NCBI GenBank assembly: GCA_963814585.1
Contig: CAWFDF010000008.1
Coordinates: 576,001-640,000, forward strand
Source of the DNA: an uncultured delta proteobacterium
GTDB lineage: Bacteria > Myxococcota > Myxococcia > Myxococcales > Anaeromyxobacteraceae
Direction of reading: 5' to 3'
DNA length: 64,000 nt
Shown here in pieces: positions 7,824 through 18,747 of the stretch. The position numbers were made by a program, and so were the translations under genes. A model generated the notes under the pieces. The model worked only from the letters and a program-made list of their open reading frames with translations, made no database searches and was not told where the DNA came from. The stretch's first letter is position 1. Each line of letters begins with the position of its first letter.

Positions 7824-8012
7824 ATGGCGAACCAGATCACCGAGGACTGCACCAGCTGTGGCGCCTGCGAGGCCGAGTGTCCGAGCGGGGCGATCGCCGA
7901 GGGCGACGACCGCTACGTGATCGACGCGGCCAAGTGCGACGAGTGCGCCTCCCATGGCGGCACGTCGGCGTGCCTGGAGGTCTGCCCGACCGAGTGCATC
8001 GTCAAGCTCTAG
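7824..8012 (+). CDS. 2[4Fe-4S] ferredoxin (62 aa)
   Basis: CTSCGACEAECP and CDEC-x8-CLEVCP motifs; GGAGA SD upstream. Confidence 0.95.
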   Translation: MANQITEDCTSCGACEAECPSGAIAEGDDRYVIDAAKCDECASHGGTSACLEVCPTECIVKL

Positions 8013-8048
8013 GTCGAAGCCGCCCCGAGGCCATGGCCTCGCCGGCCC

Positions 8049-8077
8049 AGGAGACCCCGCCCTTGGCGGGGTCTCCT
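8049..8077 (+). terminator. 13-bp GC hairpin downstream of ferredoxin
   Basis: aggagaccccgcc-ctt-ggcggggtctcct perfect stem; weak U-tract. Confidence 0.6.
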
Positions 8078-8139
8078 CGTCTGGGGACCGGCCCCGGCGC
8101 TGGAGTTTGTCTCGCCGGCGCACTAGCGTGCGCTCCTCG

Positions 8140-9945
8140 ATGACTCCGGCCTCGACCCAGCGGCTCGCGCTGGTCCTTCGCGCCTTCACCGGGGTGCTGG
8201 CCTCGTCCCTGGCGCTCTCCCTGGCGAGCGCGGGCGAGGCCGCCCCGGTGCGAGGCCCTCCGACCTGCGCCGACGCCTGGCGAATGATCGACTTCGCGGT
8301 CGCTCGCCACGTGGCCCATGATCGGCTCACGCCAGACCTGGCGACGAGAGCGCGCGACCTGCTCGCGGAAGCGCTGATCGCCGACCACCCCTGGTTGATG
8401 GCCGAGGACCTCGCCGCGCTCAAGGGGCGCGCCGCCGCCACCAGCGGCGCCACCTTGCTGGCCGAGCGCGCTGCCGGACGATGTGGCCACCTCGATGCGC
8501 AGCTGTCGCGGGTCGAGGCCGCGCTGACCCGGGCCGCCAGCCTCTTCCCTGACCCGGGCATGCTCAGCACCGCGCTGCCCGACGAGCCGCCGGAAGATGA
8601 ACCTCAGGAGGCCGAGACGCCCCCGGTCTCGGTCGACGGGCTGCGCACGCTGATCTCGGGTGATGCGCTCGTCGAGGCCTGGCGCGTTCGCGGTGCTTCG
8701 GAGTGGCCGGTCGCCCGGGCCTTCGGGGCCAGGCGCGCGCTGCGCTGGCTGGAGCTCTCGCGGCAGCGCCTGGCCAGCCGTGGAACCGCCGACCTGGTCA
8801 ATGCCTTCGCGCACGCCCTCGACCCACACAGCCGCTACGAGACCGAGGAGGAGGCCGACCAGTCCGATCGAGAGCTCAACCCTCCGATCGGCCTGCTCGG
8901 GCTGGACTTCGGCGACCCGGTGCCCGGAGGCATGCCGGTGGTCGGGCTCCATCCCGGCTCACCGGCCGCGCGCCATCGCGGGTTGCGCGTCGGCGACGTC
9001 ATGACCGCGGTCGGGGCCACCTCGATCGCGGACCGAGACGCCGACGAGGTCTCCGCCTTGCTCGACGCCTACGAGGAGGCGGTTCCCCTGACCTTCGCGC
9101 GTCCGTCGGGACGGAAGCTGGGGCCGCCGAGGCGCTTGCAGCTGGTGCGCGAGGTGCTGAAGGATCGGAACATGTCGGTCACGGCGACGCCCCAGGTCGA
9201 GAAGGGGCAGCGCGTGCTGGTGGCGAGCGTGGAGGAGGTCGACCAGGACACGGCGGACGGCGTGGAGCGAGCGCTTCACCTCGGGCGCCGACCTCCGGAC
9301 GCGGTGGTGCTGGACCTGCGGGGCTGCACCGGCGGCTACCTCACGACCTCGGTGGCGATCGCCGGACTCTTCCTCGCCGGTGGGCCGGTCGTGCGCCTGC
9401 ACAGGCTGGGCATTCCCGACGAGGTGATCGGTGATCCCGAGCCGACCCGAGCCTACGCCGGCCCGGTGCTGGTGCTGGTCGACGAGGAGACCGCCTCTGG
9501 CTGCGAGATCGTCGCGGGCGCCCTGCGGGCGCGTGGGCGGGCGCTGGTGATCGGCGCGCCTCGGACGTTCGGCAAGGGGACGATGCAGGACATCTTCGAC
9601 GGCGAGATCCCGACGGGAGCCCTCTACGTCACCACCGGCATCTTCTACCTTCCGGACGGCACCTCTCCGCAGGGTGCCGGCGTCCCGGTCGACCTGGTGG
9701 TCGCGCCTCCGACCGACGGGCTGGTGACCGAGTCTTCCTTGCCGTGGGCGCTACCCTCCCCGCCGCCGGTCCCGCCTCTCGACGGAGGCGATGCCGACCG
9801 CGACCCGACGCTGCAGGAGTCGCTCGAGCGGCTCGGCGCGGTGGTCCCGGAATCGAGGCGATCGCAGCGGGAGGGGACCGACATGGTCCTGGTTCGGGCG
9901 ACCGAGCTGGCGGCTCGACTCGTGGCGGAGCGGCGGAAGCGCTAG
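8140..9945 (+). CDS. S41 family carboxy-terminal processing protease (PDZ + peptidase), secreted
   Basis: Signal peptide, ALDPHSRY, PDZ (HPGSPAA), VLDLRGCTGG, ETASGCE (catalytic Ser) and TFGKG (Lys). Confidence 0.9.
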   Translation: MTPASTQRLALVLRAFTGVLASSLALSLASAGEAAPVRGPPTCADAWRMIDFAVARHVAHDRLTPDLATRARDLLAEALIADHPWLMAEDLAALKGRAAATSGATLLAERAAGRCGHLDAQLSRVEAALTRAASLFPDPGMLSTALPDEPPEDEPQEAETPPVSVDGLRTLISGDALVEAWRVRGASEWPVARAFGARRALRWLELSRQRLASRGTADLVNAFAHALDPHSRYETEEEADQSDRELNPPIGLLGLDFGDPVPGGMPVVGLHPGSPAARHRGLRVGDVMTAVGATSIADRDADEVSALLDAYEEAVPLTFARPSGRKLGPPRRLQLVREVLKDRNMSVTATPQVEKGQRVLVASVEEVDQDTADGVERALHLGRRPPDAVVLDLRGCTGGYLTTSVAIAGLFLAGGPVVRLHRLGIPDEVIGDPEPTRAYAGPVLVLVDEETASGCEIVAGALRARGRALVIGAPRTFGKGTMQDIFDGEIPTGALYVTTGIFYLPDGTSPQGAGVPVDLVVAPPTDGLVTESSLPWALPSPPPVPPLDGGDADRDPTLQESLERLGAVVPESRRSQREGTDMVLVRATELAARLVAERRKR

Positions 9946-10030
9946 CGGCCCCCGCCCAGCTGCTCGGCCACGCCGCGACCACGTGCTCCGACCACTGGCG
10001 ACCACCTGCCCGGGTCGGGAGGGGAACTCC

Positions 10031-11194
10031 TCACGGACGGGAGGACGGAGGAGGAGGCGGCGGCGGAAACCTCTCGAGCGGGAGCTTCCCCTCATGCAGC
10101 GTCCCGTCCACCACGAAGGTGGGCGTCGACCGGATGTTCGCCTTCATCCCGGCCGCGATGTCGGCCGCCAGGCGCGCCTCGGTCGCCGGCGATCCCAGGC
10201 ACGCCTTGAACCGGCCCACGTCGAGCTTCAACCGGGCCGCCAGCTCCTCGGGAGTCGCCGGCGACCTCTGGCTCGCGTACAGCGCGTCGTCCATCGCCTC
10301 GAACTGCCCTTGCGCCTCGGCGCAGATGGCGGCGCGCGCCAGCGAGCAGGCCCTCTGGTGGAACGGCCGCTTCAGCACGGGGTTGCACGCCTGGTCGAGC
10401 GGGAAGTGGCGCCGCACCACCTGGATGTCCGGCCTGATTCGCAGCACCTCCCGCAGCTCGGCGTGGGCGAGGGCGCAGTAGGGACACTCGTAGTCGCTGA
10501 ACAGCACCGCCGGCCCGGTGGCGGCCGGCAGCGGCGGGAGGATCGACAGGACGTTGCCCGCCGCCGTCGAGCCACTCGGCGGCCTCGCCCGCACCTCGAC
10601 GCGCGGGTAGGTGGCGATGAGGAGCATCACCCCCACCAGGCCGGCCACCACCACGGCCGCCGCCCGGCGTGGATGGCTCCAGGCCGCCCGCAGGTCGGCC
10701 CGCACGGAGGCGGCCGCCCCCACCGGCCGGGAGGCCAGCCAGCCGGTCACCAGCAGCCCGAGCGACACCGCCCAGGACCCCATGCACAGCAGGCACCACG
10801 CGCCCACGCCCAGCTTGGAGATGAACGCCAGCGCCACCGACGTGGCCGCGGTGAAGCCTCCCAGGACCAGCAGCAATCCCGCCGGCCATCGAGGGTGGAG
10901 CCGCCCCGCCGAGAGCCCCCACGCCGAGAGCGACGCGACCACGGCATAGCCGACCACGCCCCAGGCCGCGATCGGCACGCCGAAGAGCACCGACCAGCCG
11001 CTCAAGGCCACCTTGTCGCAGTCGACCTCCTCGCTGATGGTGCAGAAGCTCGTCAACCCGGCCGCGGCGTCGTGGTGGACGCGCACCAGGAGGGCAGCCA
11101 TCGCCATGCCGGCCAGGGCGAGCAGCAGCGAGGCCGCGAAGGCCGCGCGAGGCGTGGGCGGCGTTGGCGTCCTGGGCGCGGGCTGACGGGCCAT
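10031..11194 (-). CDS. VKOR-DsbA/thioredoxin fusion (disulfide bond formation)
   Basis: VKOR loop cysteines (FCTISEEVDC), WCLLC, several TM helices, then FSDYECPYC and STPTF of the DsbA fold. Confidence 0.92.
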   Translation of the reverse strand: MARQPAPRTPTPPTPRAAFAASLLLALAGMAMAALLVRVHHDAAAGLTSFCTISEEVDCDKVALSGWSVLFGVPIAAWGVVGYAVVASLSAWGLSAGRLHPRWPAGLLLVLGGFTAATSVALAFISKLGVGAWCLLCMGSWAVSLGLLVTGWLASRPVGAAASVRADLRAAWSHPRRAAAVVVAGLVGVMLLIATYPRVEVRARPPSGSTAAGNVLSILPPLPAATGPAVLFSDYECPYCALAHAELREVLRIRPDIQVVRRHFPLDQACNPVLKRPFHQRACSLARAAICAEAQGQFEAMDDALYASQRSPATPEELAARLKLDVGRFKACLGSPATEARLAADIAAGMKANIRSTPTFVVDGTLHEGKLPLERFPPPPPPPSSRP

Positions 11195-11209
11195 CGAGGG
11201 GGTGGAGCG

Positions 11210-11512
11210 CTAGTCGATCGAGCAGGGCTTGATAGGCTCACAGGGCTTGGCGTCCGCTGCCTTGCCCGGCTCGACCGTCTTGCCGGTGCCCGCCGCCTTG
11301 CTGGCATCCTCCACCCGGGCCGGAGCGGGCTTCGTGGGTGGCTCGGTCGCCTTGGCCGGGGTGCCTTTGGCCGGGGTGCCCCGGGCTGGCGCCGTCTGGG
11401 CCGGCGCCGCCGCGCTGGAGGACGCATCGGCCGGCGCCTTGTCGATCGTGCCATCCGAGATCGAGATGATCGCCAGAGAGGCGGCGAGCGATTGGGCGAT
11501 GAACTGGTTCAT
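11210..11512 (-). CDS. Small Pro/Ala/Lys-rich protein with C-terminal C-x5-C
   Basis: 100-aa ORF with hydrophobic N-terminus, low-complexity middle, ending KPCEPIKPCSID; 15 bp upstream of VKOR-DsbA. Confidence 0.7.
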   Translation of the reverse strand: MNQFIAQSLAASLAIISISDGTIDKAPADASSSAAAPAQTAPARGTPAKGTPAKATEPPTKPAPARVEDASKAAGTGKTVEPGKAADAKPCEPIKPCSID

Positions 11513-11572
11513 GTGGTGTCTGACCTCGCTGCGGGAGTTAACCCGGACCTCACCTCCCGCGCAACCACCACG

Positions 11573-13393
11573 TCAGCGTGCGGGCTCTCCGCCAGGCGTC
11601 CCGGCCCCGCCGGCGCCGGCGCCGGCCCGAGCTCGCAGCCCGTCCCGCTCCCGCTCCGCGGCCGCCGCCCGCGCCGCCTCGCGCTCCGCCACCGCCCGCG
11701 CCGCCCCGAGCGCCGCGGCGTTGTCGCGAAGCTCCTTCTCCAGGGCCGCCCGCCTCGCCTCCAGCGACCGCGCCTGTCCCTCGGCGTCCCCGACCCGGCG
11801 CCGCGCCTCGTCCCGCTCTCCGCCCAGGCGCCCCGCCTCCTTGAGCGCCGCGGCCTCCCGACGCCCGGCCTCGGCCGCCGCCTCCCGGGCCGTCGCCAGC
11901 TGTGCCTCCACCCCGGCCAGACGCTTGAGCGCCCCCTTGGCCTCCCCCTCCGCCCGGGTGGCGACCTCCCGCCCGTGATCGGCCTCCTGCCGGGCGGCGC
12001 CCAGCGCCTGCTCCAGCCTGGGGAGCTGGGCCAGCCGCGCCTCGACCCGCTTCAGCTCCTTCTGCTTGGAGTCGGCAGCGCCTTCCAGCCGGGCGATCTC
12101 CGCCTCCAGCGTCCCTCGCGAGCGATCGAGCTCCTCGAGCTTCCGTCCCAGCGAGGCCTCACGCGCCGTCAACTCGAGCAGCTTCCCGGTGAGCAGCTGG
12201 TAGCCGGCCACCACCAGGGGAAGGAGCACCGCCACCACCGCGGCGGCCGCGGCCAGCTCGCTCCGGTGGCGCCGGATGAAGAGCGCCGCGCGCCTCAGCC
12301 CGGAGCGGCGCTCGTGCCAGGTCGGCTCCAGCTTGCGGAAGCGGCGCAGCTCATCGGCCAGCGCCCCCGCCGTGCTCGGCCGATCCTCCGGGCGCTGCGC
12401 CAGGGCCCTGGCCACGATCTCGCGCAGCCGCGGGGGGACTCCGCTCGGGAGCGGAGGTGGCCTGGGATCGGCGTCGCCGCTCCGGCCGGCGTGAGGTGCC
12501 GTGCCCGAGAGGAGGAAGTAGAGCGTCCCGCCGAGCGTGTAGACGTCCGAGGCCGGCGTCGGCGGCAGCCGCTCGCGCCACTGCTCCGGCGCCATGTACG
12601 CGACCGTGCCGATGGGGAGCGAGCGCCCGGTCGCCGTTCCACCCCAATCCGGCGCGCTCCGCCGCCCGTCCTGCCGGGCCCGGCCTTCGGCGCCCGGGGC
12701 CGCCTCGTCCGGCTGCGCCGCCGCCAGCGAGGTGGCGATGCCGAAGTCGGCCAGCATCACCCGCCGGCTCTCCGGCGTGAGCAGGACGTTCTCCGGCTTG
12801 ACGTCGCCGTGGACGATGCCGGTCCGGTGCGCGGCATGGACCGCGCCGGCCAGGTCCTCCACCAGCCGGGCTGCGTCCAGCGGGGAGAGCCCGGGCTGCG
12901 CCTCCCGAAGGGAGCGGCCGATCCGGATCGAACCGGGCGCCTCCTCGTCCGGATCGGCGCAGACCGCCATCTCCACGTAGAAGGGACCGCCCTCGATGCG
13001 GCCGGCGTCGAAGACCGGCACCACGTGGGCACTGGGAATGCGCCGCGCCCGTCCGGCCTCGCGCCGCACCTGCTCGACGAACTCGCTCATCCCGGGTCCC
13101 GGGCGCAGCAGCTTGAGCGCCACGTAGCCGTCGAGCGGTGGCCGCCGCGCCAGGTAGACCTTGCCGTGCGCCCCCGCGCCCAGCTCGCGCTCCAGCGTGA
13201 ACGGCCCCAGCTCCACCGGGTACGGTCCCGAGGGCAGTGGCCCGTCCGGCCGGTCGTAGTGGGCCAGCAGCGCGTGGACCAGCTCGGCCAGCGCGGCGTC
13301 GCCGCCGCACAGCTCGTCGACCAGCCTCGCCCACTCGGCCCGGTCCTGCTTGAGGACCAGCTCCACCACCACGTCAGCGCCCAGCCTGGTCAC
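11573..13393 (-). CDS. Hanks-type Ser/Thr protein kinase with one TM helix and C-terminal coiled coil
   Basis: GAGAHGKV, VALK, HGDVKPEN, DFG, GTVAYMAPE and DVYTLG; TM segment LAAAAAVVAVLLPLVVAGY; GTG start overlaps the upstream TGA (GTGA). Confidence 0.92.
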   Translation of the reverse strand: MTRLGADVVVELVLKQDRAEWARLVDELCGGDAALAELVHALLAHYDRPDGPLPSGPYPVELGPFTLERELGAGAHGKVYLARRPPLDGYVALKLLRPGPGMSEFVEQVRREAGRARRIPSAHVVPVFDAGRIEGGPFYVEMAVCADPDEEAPGSIRIGRSLREAQPGLSPLDAARLVEDLAGAVHAAHRTGIVHGDVKPENVLLTPESRRVMLADFGIATSLAAAQPDEAAPGAEGRARQDGRRSAPDWGGTATGRSLPIGTVAYMAPEQWRERLPPTPASDVYTLGGTLYFLLSGTAPHAGRSGDADPRPPPLPSGVPPRLREIVARALAQRPEDRPSTAGALADELRRFRKLEPTWHERRSGLRRAALFIRRHRSELAAAAAVVAVLLPLVVAGYQLLTGKLLELTAREASLGRKLEELDRSRGTLEAEIARLEGAADSKQKELKRVEARLAQLPRLEQALGAARQEADHGREVATRAEGEAKGALKRLAGVEAQLATAREAAAEAGRREAAALKEAGRLGGERDEARRRVGDAEGQARSLEARRAALEKELRDNAAALGAARAVAEREAARAAAAERERDGLRARAGAGAGGAGTPGGEPAR

Positions 13394-14169
13394 GCGTCCG
13401 CCTCCTCTCCCGCCCTGCCCCTCACCTGGCGCGCCGCCACCCACGCCGCGAAGAGCCGCAGGTCCTGCTCCACCCGCGCCGGCGTCGAGCCGAGGGCCGC
13501 GGCGATGGCTGACCGTGACTCCCCGTGAAGGTAGTACCTCCGCGCCGACTCGGAGATGGCCACCCGCCGCCCCAGGCGCGGGTCGACGGCCGCCGCCGCC
13601 GCCGCCCGCTCCACCAGTCCCAGGTCCGGCGCCACCGCCAGCCGCGCCCAGGCGAGGAAGAAGGCGAGCCGCTGCTGGACCATCCCCTTCGACTCGCCGA
13701 GCAGCTCGGCCGTCTCCGACTGGGTGAAGCCGGCCACCAGGTGGCACTCCACCGCACGGGCGATGCGCCGGCGGCGCGAGATGTTGGGATCGGCGCGGAG
13801 CTGCGCCAGCAGCTCCAGCACCGCCAGCGAGTCCTCACGGGAGCCCGTCAGCGCCTCGCCGTGGATCAGCGTGAGCACGGGCAGCAGCGAGGCGGCCTCG
13901 CGCCCACGCCGCCGCGCCGTGGCCCGCCAGCGGGAGATCCAGAGCCGGCGGATGAGGAAGAGGCAGTAGGCGGTGAAGTGGCGGGCGTCCCGGAAGGTGG
14001 TGCGCCGGCGGAGGATCCTCTCCAGCGCGGTGTGCAGGCCGGCGGTGCCGGCCAGCGTCGGCGGAGCGCCCCGGCTCATGGCGCGGACGCGCTCGCGCAG
14101 CTCGTCGTAGGCCTCGGCGACCAGCTGCTCGGTGCTCGGGCCCTGTCCCGCTGTCGCCGCCGTCTCCAT
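13390..14169 (-). CDS. ECF sigma factor (TIGR02999/ECF43-like) with duplicated sigma4
   Basis: LVAEAYDELR...PTLAGTAGLHTAL...FRDARHF resembles the family pattern LLPLVYDELR..HTLQPTALVHEAY..WNDRAHF; two HTH units follow. Confidence 0.82.
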   Translation of the reverse strand: METAATAGQGPSTEQLVAEAYDELRERVRAMSRGAPPTLAGTAGLHTALERILRRRTTFRDARHFTAYCLFLIRRLWISRWRATARRRGREAASLLPVLTLIHGEALTGSREDSLAVLELLAQLRADPNISRRRRIARAVECHLVAGFTQSETAELLGESKGMVQQRLAFFLAWARLAVAPDLGLVERAAAAAAVDPRLGRRVAISESARRYYLHGESRSAIAAALGSTPARVEQDLRLFAAWVAARQVRGRAGEEADA

Positions 14170-14361
14170 CGGAGCGCCCGAGGGTATCCCGGACCGGGGC
14201 TCCAGGGCAGGGGCGGCCGGAATCTCGCCGCGGTGAAAAGGCCCGTTTCGGTCGTGGTGGCGGCAGCTTGGAGGTCCTGCCGGCCCGGGCCCGGTAGCCA
14301 GATGGGCGAGCGGCGGCGTCTGTGGATCACGGGGGCACGTCGCCCCGAGGAGAACACGACC

Positions 14362-14913
14362 ATGCCGACCAGCCAGACCGAGCGACCTTCGCTCGCCACC
14401 GTGCCCGCCATCGCCGACGCCCAGCGCTGGGCCCACCTGCTCGACCACGCCCGCGCCGTCGCCGCCAAGGTGCTCCGCCGGCCCAGGACCCACCCCGACG
14501 TCGAGGACCGCGCGCAGGACGCGCTGGTGGCGTTCCTGGTCTCCGGGATGCCTCGCTTCGACGCCGCGCTGGGAACGCCCGAGGCCCTGCTCGGCACCAT
14601 CGTCCGCAACGGGGCGCTGTCGCAGCTTCGTGACGGCGCCACCCAATCCCGCCTCGGCGCCCAGCTGGCCGCCGAGACGCCCACCTCGAGCCCCGGCTCC
14701 CAGCGCCGTGCCGAGGCGGTCCGCGACCTCGGCCGCGTCCTCTCCCGCCTCTGCCCCGGGCACGCCGAGGCGCTGGTCAGCATCGACCTGGTGGGCGAGG
14801 GGATCGCCGAGGCCGCCCGCCGCCTCGGCAAGAGCTACCAGGCCATGAACGGCCAGGTGGGGCATGCTCGCGCCGCGGCCCGGCGGGTCGCGCTGGAGCT
14901 CGTGGCGGCCTAG
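14362..14913 (+). CDS. ECF RNA polymerase sigma factor
   Basis: GAGGAG SD; sigma2 (DVEDRAQDAL, RFD, TIVRN) and sigma4 (LSRLCPGHAEAL...EAARRLGKS). Confidence 0.85.
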   Translation: MPTSQTERPSLATVPAIADAQRWAHLLDHARAVAAKVLRRPRTHPDVEDRAQDALVAFLVSGMPRFDAALGTPEALLGTIVRNGALSQLRDGATQSRLGAQLAAETPTSSPGSQRRAEAVRDLGRVLSRLCPGHAEALVSIDLVGEGIAEAARRLGKSYQAMNGQVGHARAAARRVALELVAA

Positions 14914-14957
14914 CGTTCCAGCCGCCACGAGCCCAGCCTCCCCGGCCCCACCCCGCC

Positions 14958-15506
14958 CTACCGGCGAGCGACCTGCTGGCCATCGGAGCGCTGGTCGCCC
15001 GGCAGGCGCAGCTCGGCGCGGCGGTTCTGGCTCCAGGCCTCCTCACCCGCACCGCTCACCAGCGGAAGCTCCTTGCCGAACGAGACCGTCTTCAGGGCCG
15101 CCCCGACACCGAGATCCACCAGGTAGGCACGGACCGAGTCGGCGCGGCGGTTGCCGAGCGCCAGGTTGTAGGCGGTGGTCCCGCGCTCGTCGGTGTGCCC
15201 CTCGATGACGACCGAGACCGGCCGCCTCTGCTCGAGGCAGGAGGCGGTGGTCTTCAGCTCGGCGCGGGCGCCGGCGTCGAGGCTCGCCGAGTCGAAGGCG
15301 AAGTGGACCCGCGAGACGGAGCAGGCGGGCGGGTCGGCGACCGGCCGCGGCTCGATGGACGGGGCGGCGGGCGTCGCGGACGAGGCGACGACGTCGCGGA
15401 CCTCGGTCTCGGGCCGAGCGACCGTGGCCGGCGAGGCGCAGCCGGCGGCGAGCGCGGCCAGCAGGGCGCCGAGGAAGAGGGGGGTGACGATACGGTCCAC
15501 GCGCAT
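14958..15506 (-). CDS. pal: Peptidoglycan-associated lipoprotein (OmpA/Pal family)
   Basis: Lipobox LAAGC; VHFAFDS, IEGHTDERGTTAYNLALGNRRA, SFGKE and NRRAE. Confidence 0.9.
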   Translation of the reverse strand: MRVDRIVTPLFLGALLAALAAGCASPATVARPETEVRDVVASSATPAAPSIEPRPVADPPACSVSRVHFAFDSASLDAGARAELKTTASCLEQRRPVSVVIEGHTDERGTTAYNLALGNRRADSVRAYLVDLGVGAALKTVSFGKELPLVSGAGEEAWSQNRRAELRLPGDQRSDGQQVARR

Positions 15507-15606
15507 GTGGGGCCTCCGGGCCTGGTGGCGGGATCGGACCCGCACCCGTGCTACCCACCACCCCTGGAGTTCTCTCGCGCCGCCCCGGGCCTGGCGGCCA
15601 GGACCG

Positions 15607-15993
15607 TCAGCGGACTGGTCCTCCGGGACCAGGTGGCCCGGGGAGGCGCCCCGGCTCTAGGGCGCCCGCCTCGGCGTCGACCGGGCCGCCGGCACGCGAC
15701 GCCTTCGGCAGGGCGTCGACCACCGGCCCTTCCTCGCTGGCTGCCCCGTGATGCGATCCCTCCGCCCAGCCGGGATCGATGCGGACGGTCCGGAAGGTCA
15801 CCGGTCGAAGCGGCGGCGGCGTCCGGCCCGTCAGCCGGTACCAGAGCGAGCGCGCCAGCCCGAGGATCAGCAGCGCGCCGGCCACCGGAAGCAGCACCGC
15901 GAGGCTGGCGGAGACCACCAGCGCCGTCAGCGCCCCGAGCACGACCAGCAGGAGGATGGCCGGAAGGCAGCCGCGGACCTGGACCTGGCGCAT
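15607..15993 (-). CDS. Hypothetical membrane protein
   Basis: Two hydrophobic segments (GCLPAILLLVVLG...); TATACT 6 nt upstream of the ATG. Confidence 0.65.
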   Translation of the reverse strand: MRQVQVRGCLPAILLLVVLGALTALVVSASLAVLLPVAGALLILGLARSLWYRLTGRTPPPLRPVTFRTVRIDPGWAEGSHHGAASEEGPVVDALPKASRAGGPVDAEAGALEPGRLPGPPGPGGPVR

Positions 15994-16053
15994 CACGGGA
16001 GTATAGCCCCCGACCGTGGAGCCCCGTCACGGCGCCCCCCGCAGCGGTGCGGG

Positions 16054-17535
16054 CTAGAGCTGGGGGGTCAGCAGGCGCGCCAGCGACGAGAAGAGCCGGG
16101 CGGGAAACCGCTCCCGCCGCCCCTCCGGCGAGCAGGGCCGCGCCCGCTCCAGGTCGCGGAGGAAGAAGGCGGCCAGCTCCTCCACCGCGGGCCCGCCGTG
16201 GATCGCCGCCACCACCTCGAAGTTGAGCCGCAGGCTCCGGTTGTCGAGGTTGGCCGTGCCGACGATGCCCAGGTCGTCCATCACGCAGGTCTTGGCGTGG
16301 ACCATGGGGGGCCCGTACCGGTGGATGGCCGCGCCGGCCGCCAGCAGCCCCTGGTGGAAGGTCCGGCTGGCCGCGTCCACCAGCCGGGAGTCGGTCCGCG
16401 CCGGCACCAGCAGGCGGACGTCGACGCCGCGAAGGGCCGCGCTCTCCAGCGCCGCGGCCATCGGCTCGCTCGGCAGCAGGTACGGCGTGGTGAGCCAGAT
16501 CCGGCTCCGCGCCCCGGCGATGGCCGCGAAGTAGAGCGCCTCGACGGCGTGGCCGGTCTCGTCGAGCCGCGACTGGCGCGGGCCGGTCTCGTCGGGTCCG
16601 GAGGCGACGATCTGCACCAGGTGGTCTCCGCGGTCCGCCTCGGGGAAGTAGCGGGCCCGGAGGCCCTCGGACTCCGGCGGTGGCTCGCCCGGGCGGGAGA
16701 AGAGCCAGTCCTCCAGGAAGGCCAGCTGCAGCCCGTGGACCGCGTTGCCGGCCAGGCGCACCTGGGTGTCGCGCCAGGCCGCATCGCCCTGCGCCTCGCG
16801 GCTGTGGTTGTCGCTGATGTTGACGCCGCCGGTGAAGCCGGTGAGCCCGTCGCAGACCACGATCTTCCGGTGGGAGCGGAAGTTGAAGAACCGGGCCGAG
16901 GCCTTTCCGCCGAAGGCCGGGTTGAAGCGCGCCACCTGGCCGCCGGCCGCGAGCAGCGGCGCCAGGAAGGCGCGGGTCAGGGCCGAGGAGCCCGCGGCGT
17001 CCACCAGCAGCCGCACGGTGACCCCGGCGCGAGCCCGCTCCACCAGGGCGTCGCGCACCCGGGTCCCGATCCGATCCGGCGCGAAGATATAGTACTCCAG
17101 GTGAACATGGTCCCGGGCGGCGGCGATGGCCTCGACGATGGCCTGGAAGGCCCGGTCCCCGTCGTCGTAGAGCGTGACCGAGGTGGCGGTCTCGGCCGGC
17201 ACGGCGGTGAGCGTGCGCGCCAGCTGGAGCAGCTGCCGGGTCGGCAGCGGCGCGGCGGCCTCCAGCGCCTCCCAGGCCTCGGGCTTGCCCGGGACGCTCT
17301 TGCGGGCCGCGGCGCGGCGGAGCAGGCGACGCTTCAGCCGGCGCGGGCCGAGGAAGAGGTAGACCGGCACGCCGACCACGGGCAACATCGCCAGACCGAG
17401 GATCCAGGCCAGCGTGGTGACCGGCGGCCGCCGCTCCTGCAGCATCCACCCCGCCATGAGGACGAGCCAGAGCGCCTCCAGCCCCACCAGCGTGGCGGGG
17501 GATCCGAGCGTCTCGAGGAGGCGGGCTCCCGTCAT
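16054..17535 (-). CDS. cls: Cardiolipin synthase (PLD family)
   Basis: N-terminal two-TM PLDc_N domain; two HKD motifs, HRKIVVCD and HAKTCVMD; NLDNRSLRLNFE. Confidence 0.93.
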   Translation of the reverse strand: MTGARLLETLGSPATLVGLEALWLVLMAGWMLQERRPPVTTLAWILGLAMLPVVGVPVYLFLGPRRLKRRLLRRAAARKSVPGKPEAWEALEAAAPLPTRQLLQLARTLTAVPAETATSVTLYDDGDRAFQAIVEAIAAARDHVHLEYYIFAPDRIGTRVRDALVERARAGVTVRLLVDAAGSSALTRAFLAPLLAAGGQVARFNPAFGGKASARFFNFRSHRKIVVCDGLTGFTGGVNISDNHSREAQGDAAWRDTQVRLAGNAVHGLQLAFLEDWLFSRPGEPPPESEGLRARYFPEADRGDHLVQIVASGPDETGPRQSRLDETGHAVEALYFAAIAGARSRIWLTTPYLLPSEPMAAALESAALRGVDVRLLVPARTDSRLVDAASRTFHQGLLAAGAAIHRYGPPMVHAKTCVMDDLGIVGTANLDNRSLRLNFEVVAAIHGGPAVEELAAFFLRDLERARPCSPEGRRERFPARLFSSLARLLTPQL

Positions 17536-17634: not shown

Positions 17635-18747
17635 ATGATCGATGCCGTCCATTGCGGAAGTTGCGGCCGAGAGGTCCCCCGGCCGTCCGGCCCCGGCGCG
17701 GCCTGTCCCGCCTGCCGGGCGCCGCTGGCACCGGGCGCCCAGGCCGTTCCGGCCCGGACCGTGCCGGCCGGGGTCGAGGCCGTCGAGGTCCCGTTCCTGG
17801 CGGGCGACTTCGAGGACCTGGAGCTGGGCCCGGAGCCGGGCACGGCGCCCTCCCCGCCGTCACCCAGCCGACCCGACGCCCTCGGCGAGGCGCCCGCCTC
17901 GCGCCACACCCAGAGCGAGTCCTCGCGAGCCGCGGCCCGCATGGCCAACGTCCCGACCTTCAAGGCCGCCAGCGCGCGAGGCGGGTTCCCCATCCTCCCC
18001 ATCGGCATGGGCCTGGCGCTGATCCTCGGCGTCACCGCCTTCGCCCTGCTTCGGGGTCGGCCGGCGGCCCCTGCCGTCGTCGCGGCGCCCTCCAGGGAGC
18101 TGGAGGTCGCCAGGATCGGACGGCCGCCCGAGCCGTCCCCGTCGGTCTCCTCCGAGCCGGATCCTCCCGCCCCGGTGGTGACGATGGACCTCCCGGCCGA
18201 CGAGATCCGGGTGCCTCGGCCTCGGCCCAAACCCCACGAACGCGAGGCTCGGGCTCGCCCGGCCCGCCCGGCCGCACCGCCGGCTCGCGAGGTCACCCGC
18301 CCGGACAAGCCAGCCAGCAACCGCCTCGCCCCCGCGCCGGCGCCGGCGCCGGCGCCGAGAGTCGAGCCCGATCCCGTGCCGCCGCCCCAGTTCGTGGCCG
18401 CCCCACCGGCCGAGCCCCCGAGCCTCCCGGCGCCACTGGCCATCGGCCCGAGCTTCGCCCGCGAGGGCTACCAGAAGGCCCGGCCCTCGACGCCGGGCTG
18501 CGTCGCCGCCTCGCTCCGCCTGCCTCGTGACATCGCCGACGTCAGCGGAGCGAGCGCCACCGTGAAGTTCGCGGTGGACGAGACCGGGAAGGTCTCGCAG
18601 TTCAGCTACCTCTCGGGGCCCGACGAACCGCGAATCGGCGCCGCCATCTGGGCCGCGGTCCAGCGCTGCGAGTGGACCCCCGGCGCCACCGGGCAAGGGA
18701 AGCCCATCGCGCTCTGGGTGACCATGCCGATCAAGTTCGGCAGGTAG
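17635..18747 (+). CDS. Zn-ribbon / TM / Pro-rich / TonB C-terminal domain protein
   Basis: N-terminal CGSC...CPAC, single TM, Pro-rich linker, and VKFAVDETGKV...AVQRCEWTPG..GKPIALWVTMPIKF (TonB_C). Confidence 0.8.
   Translation: MIDAVHCGSCGREVPRPSGPGAACPACRAPLAPGAQAVPARTVPAGVEAVEVPFLAGDFEDLELGPEPGTAPSPPSPSRPDALGEAPASRHTQSESSRAAARMANVPTFKAASARGGFPILPIGMGLALILGVTAFALLRGRPAAPAVVAAPSRELEVARIGRPPEPSPSVSSEPDPPAPVVTMDLPADEIRVPRPRPKPHEREARARPARPAAPPAREVTRPDKPASNRLAPAPAPAPAPRVEPDPVPPPQFVAAPPAEPPSLPAPLAIGPSFAREGYQKARPSTPGCVAASLRLPRDIADVSGASATVKFAVDETGKVSQFSYLSGPDEPRIGAAIWAAVQRCEWTPGATGQGKPIALWVTMPIKFGR

Follow-up and report, generated by a model that had tools for sequence, protein, structure and literature searches.

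A kinase-linked ECF sigma factor with a duplicated sigma4 domain and its predicted sigma cascade in Anaeromyxobacteraceae

A tandem-sigma4 sigma factor encoded with a membrane kinase

Sigma factors of the extracytoplasmic function (ECF) type are defined by one sigma2 and one sigma4 domain. In a 64,000-nt stretch of an uncultured delta proteobacterium of the family Anaeromyxobacteraceae (assembly GCA_963814585.1, contig CAWFDF010000008.1, forward-strand positions 576,001 to 640,000; hereafter, the window), we identified an ECF sigma factor, ECF1, in which a single sigma2 domain is followed by two sigma4 domains, termed sigma4a and sigma4b. Its gene overlaps that of a Hanks-type Ser/Thr kinase and diverges from the gene of a second ECF sigma factor, ECF2, beyond which lies a gene for a Pal/OmpA-like lipoprotein (Table 1). 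That the sigma4 duplication is real and under selection is, in our judgment, practically certain; that the four genes form a conserved kinase-ECF1-ECF2-Pal-like module, acting as a three-step envelope-stress cascade, is a reading towards which the comparative evidence tips us modestly. A first-pass annotation of this DNA had called the open reading frames (ORFs) of the sigma factor, the kinase, and the second ECF correctly, together with the GTGA overlap of the kinase with the sigma stop (13390-13393) and the 192 bp across which ECF2, with its DVED motif intact, is divergently transcribed; it had missed the likely output, the Pal-like gene just beyond position 14913.

The same annotation described two helix-turn-helix units at a period of 69 residues behind one sigma2, and every residue pair that it listed is identical at that period. 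In a self-comparison of ECF1, the 69-residue period gave 21 identities over 78 positions, compared with 17 over 93 for the best of 39 other periods (50-89), and the repeat had a local alignment score of 76 against 25.6 +/- 4.7 for shuffled sequences, with none of 2000 shuffles scoring as high. An HHalign comparison of sigma4a with sigma4b, based on a 14-sequence alignment, gave 98.6% (E 1e-15) over 64 ungapped columns. Further, an AlphaFold2 model of ECF1, built with 98 homologs (mean predicted local distance difference test score, 80.7), comprises a sigma2 bundle and then two four-helix units, which are linked by a single continuous helix (residues 161-195). Residues 115-179 of this model align structurally to region 4 of SigF (Z 9.0, root-mean-square deviation [rmsd] 1.6, 57 aligned), and residues 180-253 to region 4 of Streptomyces coelicolor SigR (Z 8.2, rmsd 2.2, 65 aligned), so that the second unit (residues 182-247) does model as a sigma4 domain; a Z near 8 can by itself reflect a common helical arrangement, and the sequence repeat is the stronger evidence for duplication. 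A Foldseek search of the model against the PDB returned nothing at E <= 0.001, the top rows being sigma factors, and a PDB sequence search with the family profile reached E 0.011 at best. In a protein-cluster atlas, ECF1 matched its own cluster and generic sigma clusters.

Family placement and distribution

ECF1 matched PF07638 (Sigma70_ECF), a Pfam domain included in the definition of ECF43 (PMC7826278), with 37.4 bits over residues 8-176 (cut-off, 21.1). Against TIGR02999, it scored 55.5 bits over residues 7-175, which is under the curated cut-off of 126.15; among nine distant tandem homologs, seven scored 43-68.5 bits and two gave no match at 1e-9, and all 10 single-sigma4 relatives tested passed, with 146-223 bits. 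In a quick tree of the core, the 15 tandem proteins formed one clade (SH-aLRT support, 99), and this clade grouped with 35 TIGR02999-like proteins, picked by similarity to the query, against seven other ECFs (99), either nested within them or as their sister. Because the tandem form makes one clade beside the TIGR02999-like proteins, and the single-sigma4 relatives pass TIGR02999, a single origin of the duplication, in an ancestor of ECF43 type, is most likely, in keeping with the ECF43-like origin first suggested for ECF1. We file ECF1 as an ECF43-derived lineage, and not as a member of ECF43, since (i) it falls below the TIGR02999 cut-off, (ii) its second sigma4 (residues 182-247) departs from the ECF43 architecture of one sigma2 and one sigma4 only, and (iii) the extracytoplasmic tetratricopeptide repeats (TPRs) that feature in ECF43 had no profile match in its kinase. 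The last feature is a soft one, as ECF43 kinases vary in their outside domains (PMC13147305).

A protein search returned 147 ECF1 relatives; the 120 that were listed align over 85-100% of the query, and three are named Anaeromyxobacter. Among 92 genomes of the family, 35 had an ECF1 match; by-eye reading of match ranges and translations assigned the tandem form to 33 (one frameshifted) and only single-sigma4 relatives to two; the duplication is conserved in homologs. The ECF1 gene of locus L043 (genome G032) is frameshifted, which may be an assembly error. In a phylum sample, the ECF1 profile matched 130 of 401 genomes; among the matches listed (all except the 44 weakest), those reaching the second unit came from 25 genomes, all of the Anaeromyxobacteraceae, and those from other families ended near the close of the first sigma4. 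A search of 1.84 billion representatives yielded 1202 matches, the best 150 of which comprised 12 full tandem proteins, five fragments, and otherwise the core only; these entries carry no taxon names, and some of the remotest tandem proteins may come from beyond the Anaeromyxobacteraceae. No fused or longer forms of ECF1 (463-2000 residues) appeared at E <= 1e-15 among 8000 candidates, which is weak evidence. A search of the openly accessible literature, which covered neither the original EcfP report nor all of the ECF Hub supplement, found no tandem-sigma4 ECF described; a paper with "two sigma4 domains" (PMC10223161) was rejected as a precedent, as two different proteins are meant there.

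The kinase and a predicted phosphoswitch at Thr42

In ECF43 sigma factors, the acidic DxxD motif of sigma2.2 is replaced by QTTA, the Thr of which is phosphorylated in EcfP and EcfK (PMC13147305; PMC8999054; PMC7826278). The sigma2 domain of ECF1 likewise lacks the acidic motif and carries PTLAGT at residues 37-42, as had been noted. Here, AGTA aligns with the QTTA of TIGR02999, which places Thr42 at the third position, the column of the ECF43 phospho-Thr. Thr42 is invariant in 98 of 98 close homologs and 37 of 37 broad homologs; Thr47, found in 98% of the close clade, stands where Glu is usual. At the sequence level, the earlier choice of Thr42 as phospho-site is thus upheld. Phosphorylation of ECF1 is proposed because of the ECF43 precedent, and by this analogy it is likely that Thr42 works as the phosphoswitch of ECF1.

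The kinase gene directly follows ECF1 in all 30 loci examined. Its product scores 88.2 bits against PF00069 and carries the Gly loop, VAxK Lys, alphaC Glu, D-x-K-x-x-N, DFG, and APE elements of Hanks-type kinases, with K94, E112, D197, K199, N202, D216-F217-G218, and E270 invariant in 37 of 37 homologs; HGD or HSD replaces HRD in 36 of 36 loci, which makes it a non-RD kinase. A hydrophobic segment follows the kinase domain in 20 of 20 kinases. In the window, this segment is a transmembrane (TM) helix at about residues 380-398 (hydropathy, 2.39), with five Lys or Arg residues before it and two after it. Because the residues are more basic on the kinase side of this helix, the coiled coil behind it is predicted to be extracytoplasmic; the first-pass annotation was right about an intact, coupled kinase with a coil and missed this topology. 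The part after the TM helix measures 188-261 residues in 18 of 20 loci, and the other two change frame after the TM helix; in locus L038 (G030), the kinase is frameshifted just past the TM helix, which may be an assembly error. Long helices span residues 377-443 and 458-591 of the kinase. A predicted complex of ECF1 (residues 10-252) with the cytoplasmic part of the kinase (residues 1-360) scored 0.18 (mark, 0.32) and serves no conclusion.

Upstream of the operon, 28 of 30 loci have a TAnnnT box close to the start of ECF1, compared with a background of 1.5% per 45 nt. A consensus scanner found no sigma70 promoters, and no terminators, in positions 9900-16100, and for this reason we call the box only a -10-like element. 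Its conservation fits constitutive synthesis of ECF1 and the kinase, with control by phosphorylation. Profile libraries detected no anti-sigma family among the scanned neighbors of ECF1 and ECF2 in the window, in agreement with the earlier remark that no anti-sigma gene is visible.

P1 and the second sigma factor

A bipartite promoter-like motif, P1 (GTRGCCR-N11-GGYGGCGYTT, fixed spacing), lies 5' of whichever gene diverges from ECF1. Its spacer, from GTRGCC to CGYT, is 17 nt, as is common in ECF promoters. When the window was excluded from training, P1 was the top site of the source genome at 33.7 bits, followed by 17.9. In held-out metagenome loci, it scored at least 19.6 in 38 of 46; seven of the eight misses have neither ECF2 nor the Pal-like gene in the fetched DNA, and the remaining one, L147, has a degenerate site of 13.4 bits. 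These loci include near-copies of each other or of training genomes, and the 62 P1 sites merge to 50 distinct ones.

Where an insert separates ECF1 from ECF2 (genomes G080, G081, and G086), P1 stays with ECF2. The insert, an unrelated gene between ECF1 and P1-ECF2 (loci L012, L014, L146, and L009/L034), reads by eye as what is apparently a gene for a membrane acyltransferase-like protein in G081 and G086, and it is longer in G080. Six genomes (56-91% complete) have an otherwise intact locus that lacks ECF2, and it was not found elsewhere in them, their best score against the ECF2 profile being 39.9-52.9 bits, compared with 199-237 bits for true orthologs. All six keep P1, with a Pal-like gene directly behind it, and the 14 P1 sites of ECF2-less loci are 93% identical in the boxes, 45% in the spacer, and 37% in the flank. 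Since all ECF2-less loci group in a single clade within the ECF2-positive ones (SH-aLRT, 97), the loss of ECF2 is one event. Because P1 persists after this loss, ECF2 cannot be its sole reader, and ECF1 presents itself as the obvious candidate and, judged by this comparison, a probable one.

The motif drifts in the distant homologs G015, G070, G072, and G058. Exact P1 matches ending in GGCGYTT number 20 among the 92 genomes, all of them in genomes with ECF1; a loose pattern ending in YYT occurs in 44 of the 92, including genomes without ECF1, so that only the stricter form is informative. The source genome contains only one strong P1 site, and motif scans for a wider P1/P2 regulon found none in this genome. 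Three extra pattern matches that we fetched were either coding (two) or not 5' of a nearby gene start (one). The -35 and -10 elements predicted for ECF43, GTC and CAG (PMC7826278), differ from the GTRGCC and GGCGYTT of P1, the published motif being itself a prediction and the P1 reader one of ours.

Two leader sequences may form structures in 5' untranslated regions: a GC-rich inverted repeat (GGGGC...GCCCC) 3' of P1 in the ECF2 leader, at positions 14322-14350 (+) of the window and in homologs, and a longer conserved leader (GACTGGCAGCG...) 5' of the Pal-like gene in several ECF2-less loci.

P2 and the Pal-like gene

The lipoprotein gene in the window encodes a lipobox and an OmpA-like peptidoglycan-binding domain and is one of six OmpA-like matches in the genome. 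It scores 72.1 bits against PF00691 and 112.1 bits against TIGR02802, under the cut-off of 125.35, and we file it as a Pal-like paralog and not as a Pal equivalog. In ECF2-positive loci, it faces back toward ECF2 and has its own motif, P2 (GAGAGAA-N13-15-G(C/G)GTAG), at its 5' side. P2 scored 15.7-24.5 in all 10 of the held-out, ECF2-positive loci whose upstream DNA was long enough, and no more than 4.4 in all 13 ECF2-less loci; this co-occurrence makes it reasonably likely that ECF2 reads P2. Two strains in culture, Anaeromyxobacter oryzae Red232 (L127) and A. oryzisoli SG63 (L121), carry the full module, including P1 and P2.

The paralog occurs in 26 of the 92 genomes: 22 of these have ECF1, G019 has ECF2 at the end of a contig, and the other three belong to genus g4. 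In two genomes of another genus with no ECF1 match (G049 and G051), the Pal-like gene diverges from an ECF2-related sigma gene, with GCGAGAGA boxes 5' of both. Since the pair and its boxes occur there with no match to ECF1, they suggest that an older, possibly ancestral, ECF2-Pal unit later came under ECF1 control. The ECF2-related sigma of these loci (L180:4627-6496 and L181:4500-6360) has an insertion in sigma4, and behind it lies a gene for a 107-residue, single-TM protein that looks like an anti-sigma factor.

What the second sigma4 may do

The two sigma4 copies differ in their conservation: mean column entropy is 0.41 in sigma4a versus 0.92 in sigma4b, and the ratio of nonsynonymous to synonymous substitution rates (dN/dS) in the recognition helix is 0.13 versus 0.33. 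Within the close clade, the recognition helix of sigma4a hardly varies. In sigma4b, positions 228-231, 235, and 238 vary while P1 is constant, and the core, together with R210, R211, D236, and R247, is invariant in 98 of 98 homologs. From this pattern, sigma4a is probably the -35 reader and sigma4b an accessory domain kept by selection; that sigma4b is not a base reader we hold to be probable.

The first-pass annotation had proposed that the second sigma4 reads an extended or duplicated -35 element or confers a second promoter specificity. Such a base-reading role would suit the intact sigma4 fold, the VEQDL-x-x-FAAW segment, which resembles the canonical end of the ECF43 helix, and a weak A/T conservation in P1 sites at 53 and 74-76 nt upstream of the -10 box end. 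However, the 50 distinct P1 sites contain no second match to the -35 box, whatever the upstream offset (best mean, -11.4 bits versus +11.6 for the true box), the variable positions listed above are the base-facing ones, and the genome has a single strong P1 site; neither form of the proposal was borne out, and we consider it very unlikely. A candidate site of the integration host factor type upstream of P1 was also rejected, because its best mean of 3.6 of 9 positions, versus ~1.5-3.3 at other offsets, was not convincing. That sigma4b is an inert leftover of duplication, kept only as a cap for the sigma4a fold, would agree with its lower conservation, but it is whole in all 15 tandem proteins, down to ~30% identity, with a dN/dS of 0.33 and invariant surface Arg residues, which leaves this explanation scarcely credible. 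Within the same cascade, sigma4b could instead be a protein-interaction module that docks the N-terminal bundle of the kinase, or that folds back to inhibit ECF1 until phosphorylation. The lack of an anti-sigma among the neighbors scanned, the regulatory nature of many ECF C-terminal extensions (PMC8999054), the non-RD kinase with an N-terminal bundle like that predicted for PknS (PMC13147305), and the fixed core and Arg residues of sigma4b are all compatible with this. In the AlphaFold2 model, however, sigma4b is held away on the continuous helix and is no separate flexible module, and single-sigma4 TIGR02999 proteins adjoin related kinases in three of five loci checked, so that docking needs no second sigma4; we regard this role as unlikely. 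A clamp on the DNA backbone or the holoenzyme is the role that we would favor, only narrowly, over kinase docking or autoinhibition.

A proposed cascade

From the observed anatomy, conservation, and motif-gene co-occurrence, we predict the phosphorylation, the transcription, the signal, and the role of sigma4b as follows. The ECF1-kinase operon would be made from a housekeeping-type promoter, with ECF1 inactive because its sigma2.2 lacks the acidic residues. The ~190-residue outside coil of the kinase would sense a signal, most likely an envelope disturbance, leading to phosphorylation of Thr42 (with Thr38 and Thr47 as candidate extra sites), upon which ECF1 would bind core RNA polymerase. Sigma4a would then read the -35 element of P1 at the normal 17-nt spacing, and ECF2 would be transcribed; ECF2, which should need no modification, would in turn read P2 and transcribe the Pal-like gene, to give more outer-membrane-to-wall tethers. 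Sigma4b would read no bases, its basic surface most likely clamping the holoenzyme or the upstream DNA backbone at the single GC-rich P1. A kinase-to-ECF1-to-ECF2 cascade had been raised as a possibility in the first-pass annotation, and the conservation of P1 lends it comparative support.

The competing view is that there is no cascade from ECF1 to ECF2, with either ECF2 itself or some unrelated sigma factor reading P1 and the targets of ECF1 lying elsewhere. ECFs usually autoregulate (PMC7826278), P1 moves with ECF2 when inserts part the genes, and the loss of ECF2 is a single event, all of which would suit this view; against it, P1 is kept after that loss, ECF2-type sigmas accompany a different (GAGAGA) box, and the 20 exact GGCGYTT-ending matches all lie in ECF1 genomes, although whole-locus loss would give the same pattern. 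On balance, we find it improbable. Several points nonetheless weigh against the cascade as proposed. It is built entirely by sequence comparison, the envelope signal is deduced only from the coil and the output gene, and the role of sigma4b is drawn solely from a conservation pattern; a different sigma could read P1; a number of held-out loci nearly duplicate one another or training genomes; the switch between P1 and P2 is one evolutionary event, with the ECF2-less loci in one clade; and the six ECF2-less genomes are incomplete to the extent given above. The P2 matrix is weak, with leave-one-out scores of 0.5-30.8 (three of 12 below 12), and P2 barely tops the source genome (18.1 versus 16.7) and fails before the Pal-like gene in G058 (2.0) and G015 (1.2; a variant is visible). 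Moreover, the Pal-like gene is internally deleted in G083 (L032), where P2 is intact, and was not found at the locus in G091 (L033), although ECF1, the kinase, P1, and ECF2 look intact in both; six genomes of genus g3 with the tandem sigma have no match to it. The Pal-like output is for these reasons not universal. Genus g3 has the tandem sigma and the kinase, with a downstream sigma-like ORF in the two loci read (L048 and L186).

That the kinase of the proposed cascade senses envelope spacing is a tentative idea. A bolder version, which we consider rather unlikely, would make the duplicated sigma4 a built-in activator touching upstream DNA or RNA polymerase and the coil of the non-RD kinase (~28 nm, from 190 residues x 0.15 nm) a ruler of inner-to-outer-membrane spacing that induces a spare Pal-like tether, in a feedback loop short-circuited in one lineage by deletion of the middle sigma.

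Comparison with known systems

By profile search and tree, the nearest relatives of ECF1 are the ECF43 pairs. EcfP-PknT of Vibrio parahaemolyticus and EcfK-PknS of Xanthomonas citri (TIGR02999/PF07638) share with the present pair the Sigma70_ECF domain, a Thr in place of the acidic sigma2.2 motif, a +1 gene for a single-pass kinase that begins with a helical bundle, and the lack of an anti-sigma. In contrast to them, ECF1 has a second sigma4 and falls under the TIGR02999 cut-off, its kinase is non-RD with a long coiled coil instead of TPRs, and it is predicted to act on a further sigma gene and a Pal-like gene, not on type VI secretion or polymyxin genes. A domain after sigma4 and no anti-sigma are also found in ECF41 (SnoaL), ECF42 (TPR), ECF238/CorE (Cys-rich), and ECF57 (WD40), whereas in ECF1, a kinase-linked sigma, sigma4 itself has been copied to form the extension; the available parts of PMC8999054 and PMC7826278 contain no such extension. 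ECF2 resembles HrpL/ECF32 and S. coelicolor SigE/ECF39 in its intact acidic motif, lack of an anti-sigma, and apparent transcriptional control (class described in PMC8999054), but its predicted activator is a phospho-switched ECF and not an enhancer-binding protein or a two-component system. The Pal-like protein shares the lipobox and OmpA-like domain of Pal (TIGR02802) and OmpA-family lipoproteins and differs from Pal in its sub-cut-off score, in being one of six such matches, and in its tie to this module.

Table 1. Coordinates of the module and its predicted elements in the window
Feature	Position	Strand	Description	Basis
ECF1	13390..14169	-	ECF43-derived sigma, 259 aa; sigma2 plus tandem sigma4a/sigma4b	ORF, PF07638, TIGR02999, AlphaFold2 model, tree
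Thr42 codon of ECF1	14044..14046	-	Predicted phospho-acceptor; AGTA corresponds to ECF43 QTTA	Alignment; motif definition in PMC13147305
Thr38 codon of ECF1	14056-14058	-		Thr or Ser throughout close homolog set
sigma4a of ECF1	13636..13833	-	aa 113-178; predicted -35 reader	Canonical position; recognition helix near-invariant
sigma4b of ECF1	13429..13626	-	aa 182-247	Conserved core and Arg residues; recognition-helix surface variable
Kinase	11573..13393	-	Hanks-type Ser/Thr kinase, 606 aa; N-terminal three-helix bundle aa 6-46, kinase domain aa 66-346
Kinase TM helix	12200..12256	-	aa 380-398	Hydropathy
Kinase helical/coiled-coil region	11621..12199	-	aa 399-591, ~190 residues; predicted extracytoplasmic, candidate sensor
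TACCCT	14181..14186	-	Housekeeping-type -10-like box (TAnnnT) 5' of ECF1-kinase operon
P1	14293..14321	+	Bipartite promoter-like motif, predicted ECF1 target	-35 GGTAGCCAG 14293-14301; -10 GGCGTCT 14315-14321
ECF2	14362..14913	+	183 aa; predicted transcriptional control	Acidic sigma2.2 motif intact (DVEDRAQD)
Pal/OmpA-like gene	14958..15506	-	Peptidoglycan-binding lipoprotein paralog, predicted cascade output	PF00691, TIGR02802
P2	15551..15576	-	Promoter-like motif, predicted ECF2 target	GAGAGAA 15576-15570; GGGTAG 15556-15551

Genes around the module

Behind the kinase, on the same strand, are a 100-residue Ala/Pro-rich ORF with no Pfam match and a two-Cys C terminus (11210-11512, -), and then a VKOR-DsbA fusion gene (10031-11194, -); in loci L031-L034, of the same genus, the kinase is likewise followed by the VKOR gene, which was not found in L035-L050. 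The window also contains genes for an S41 peptidase with PDZ (7954-9945, +), a small membrane protein (15607-15996, -), a cardiolipin-synthase-like phospholipase D (16054-17535, -), and a zinc-ribbon/TonB-C protein (17635-18747, +), envelope genes that are linked to the module only in close relatives. In distant members, a second sigma-like ORF adjoins the module (L048:5115-5756, L186:5620-6240, and L046:4915-5550); it is convergent after the kinase in genus g3 and divergent in G028, where its score against the ECF2 profile is only 43.9 bits. In L048, the tandem sigma diverges from a gene for a secreted-looking, acidic, low-complexity protein.

Significance

Sigma factors that are switched on by phosphorylation have been characterized only in a small number of Proteobacteria, with little known of their signals and promoters; for the present module, we predict to base level where the phospho-site, the two target promoters, and the output gene lie. 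Its one-site promoter, absent elsewhere in the genome, is a candidate for an orthogonal, kinase-switched expression part. Because this lineage has kept the second sigma4 under selection, it is a natural setting in which to test how an additional sigma4 can act on RNA polymerase.

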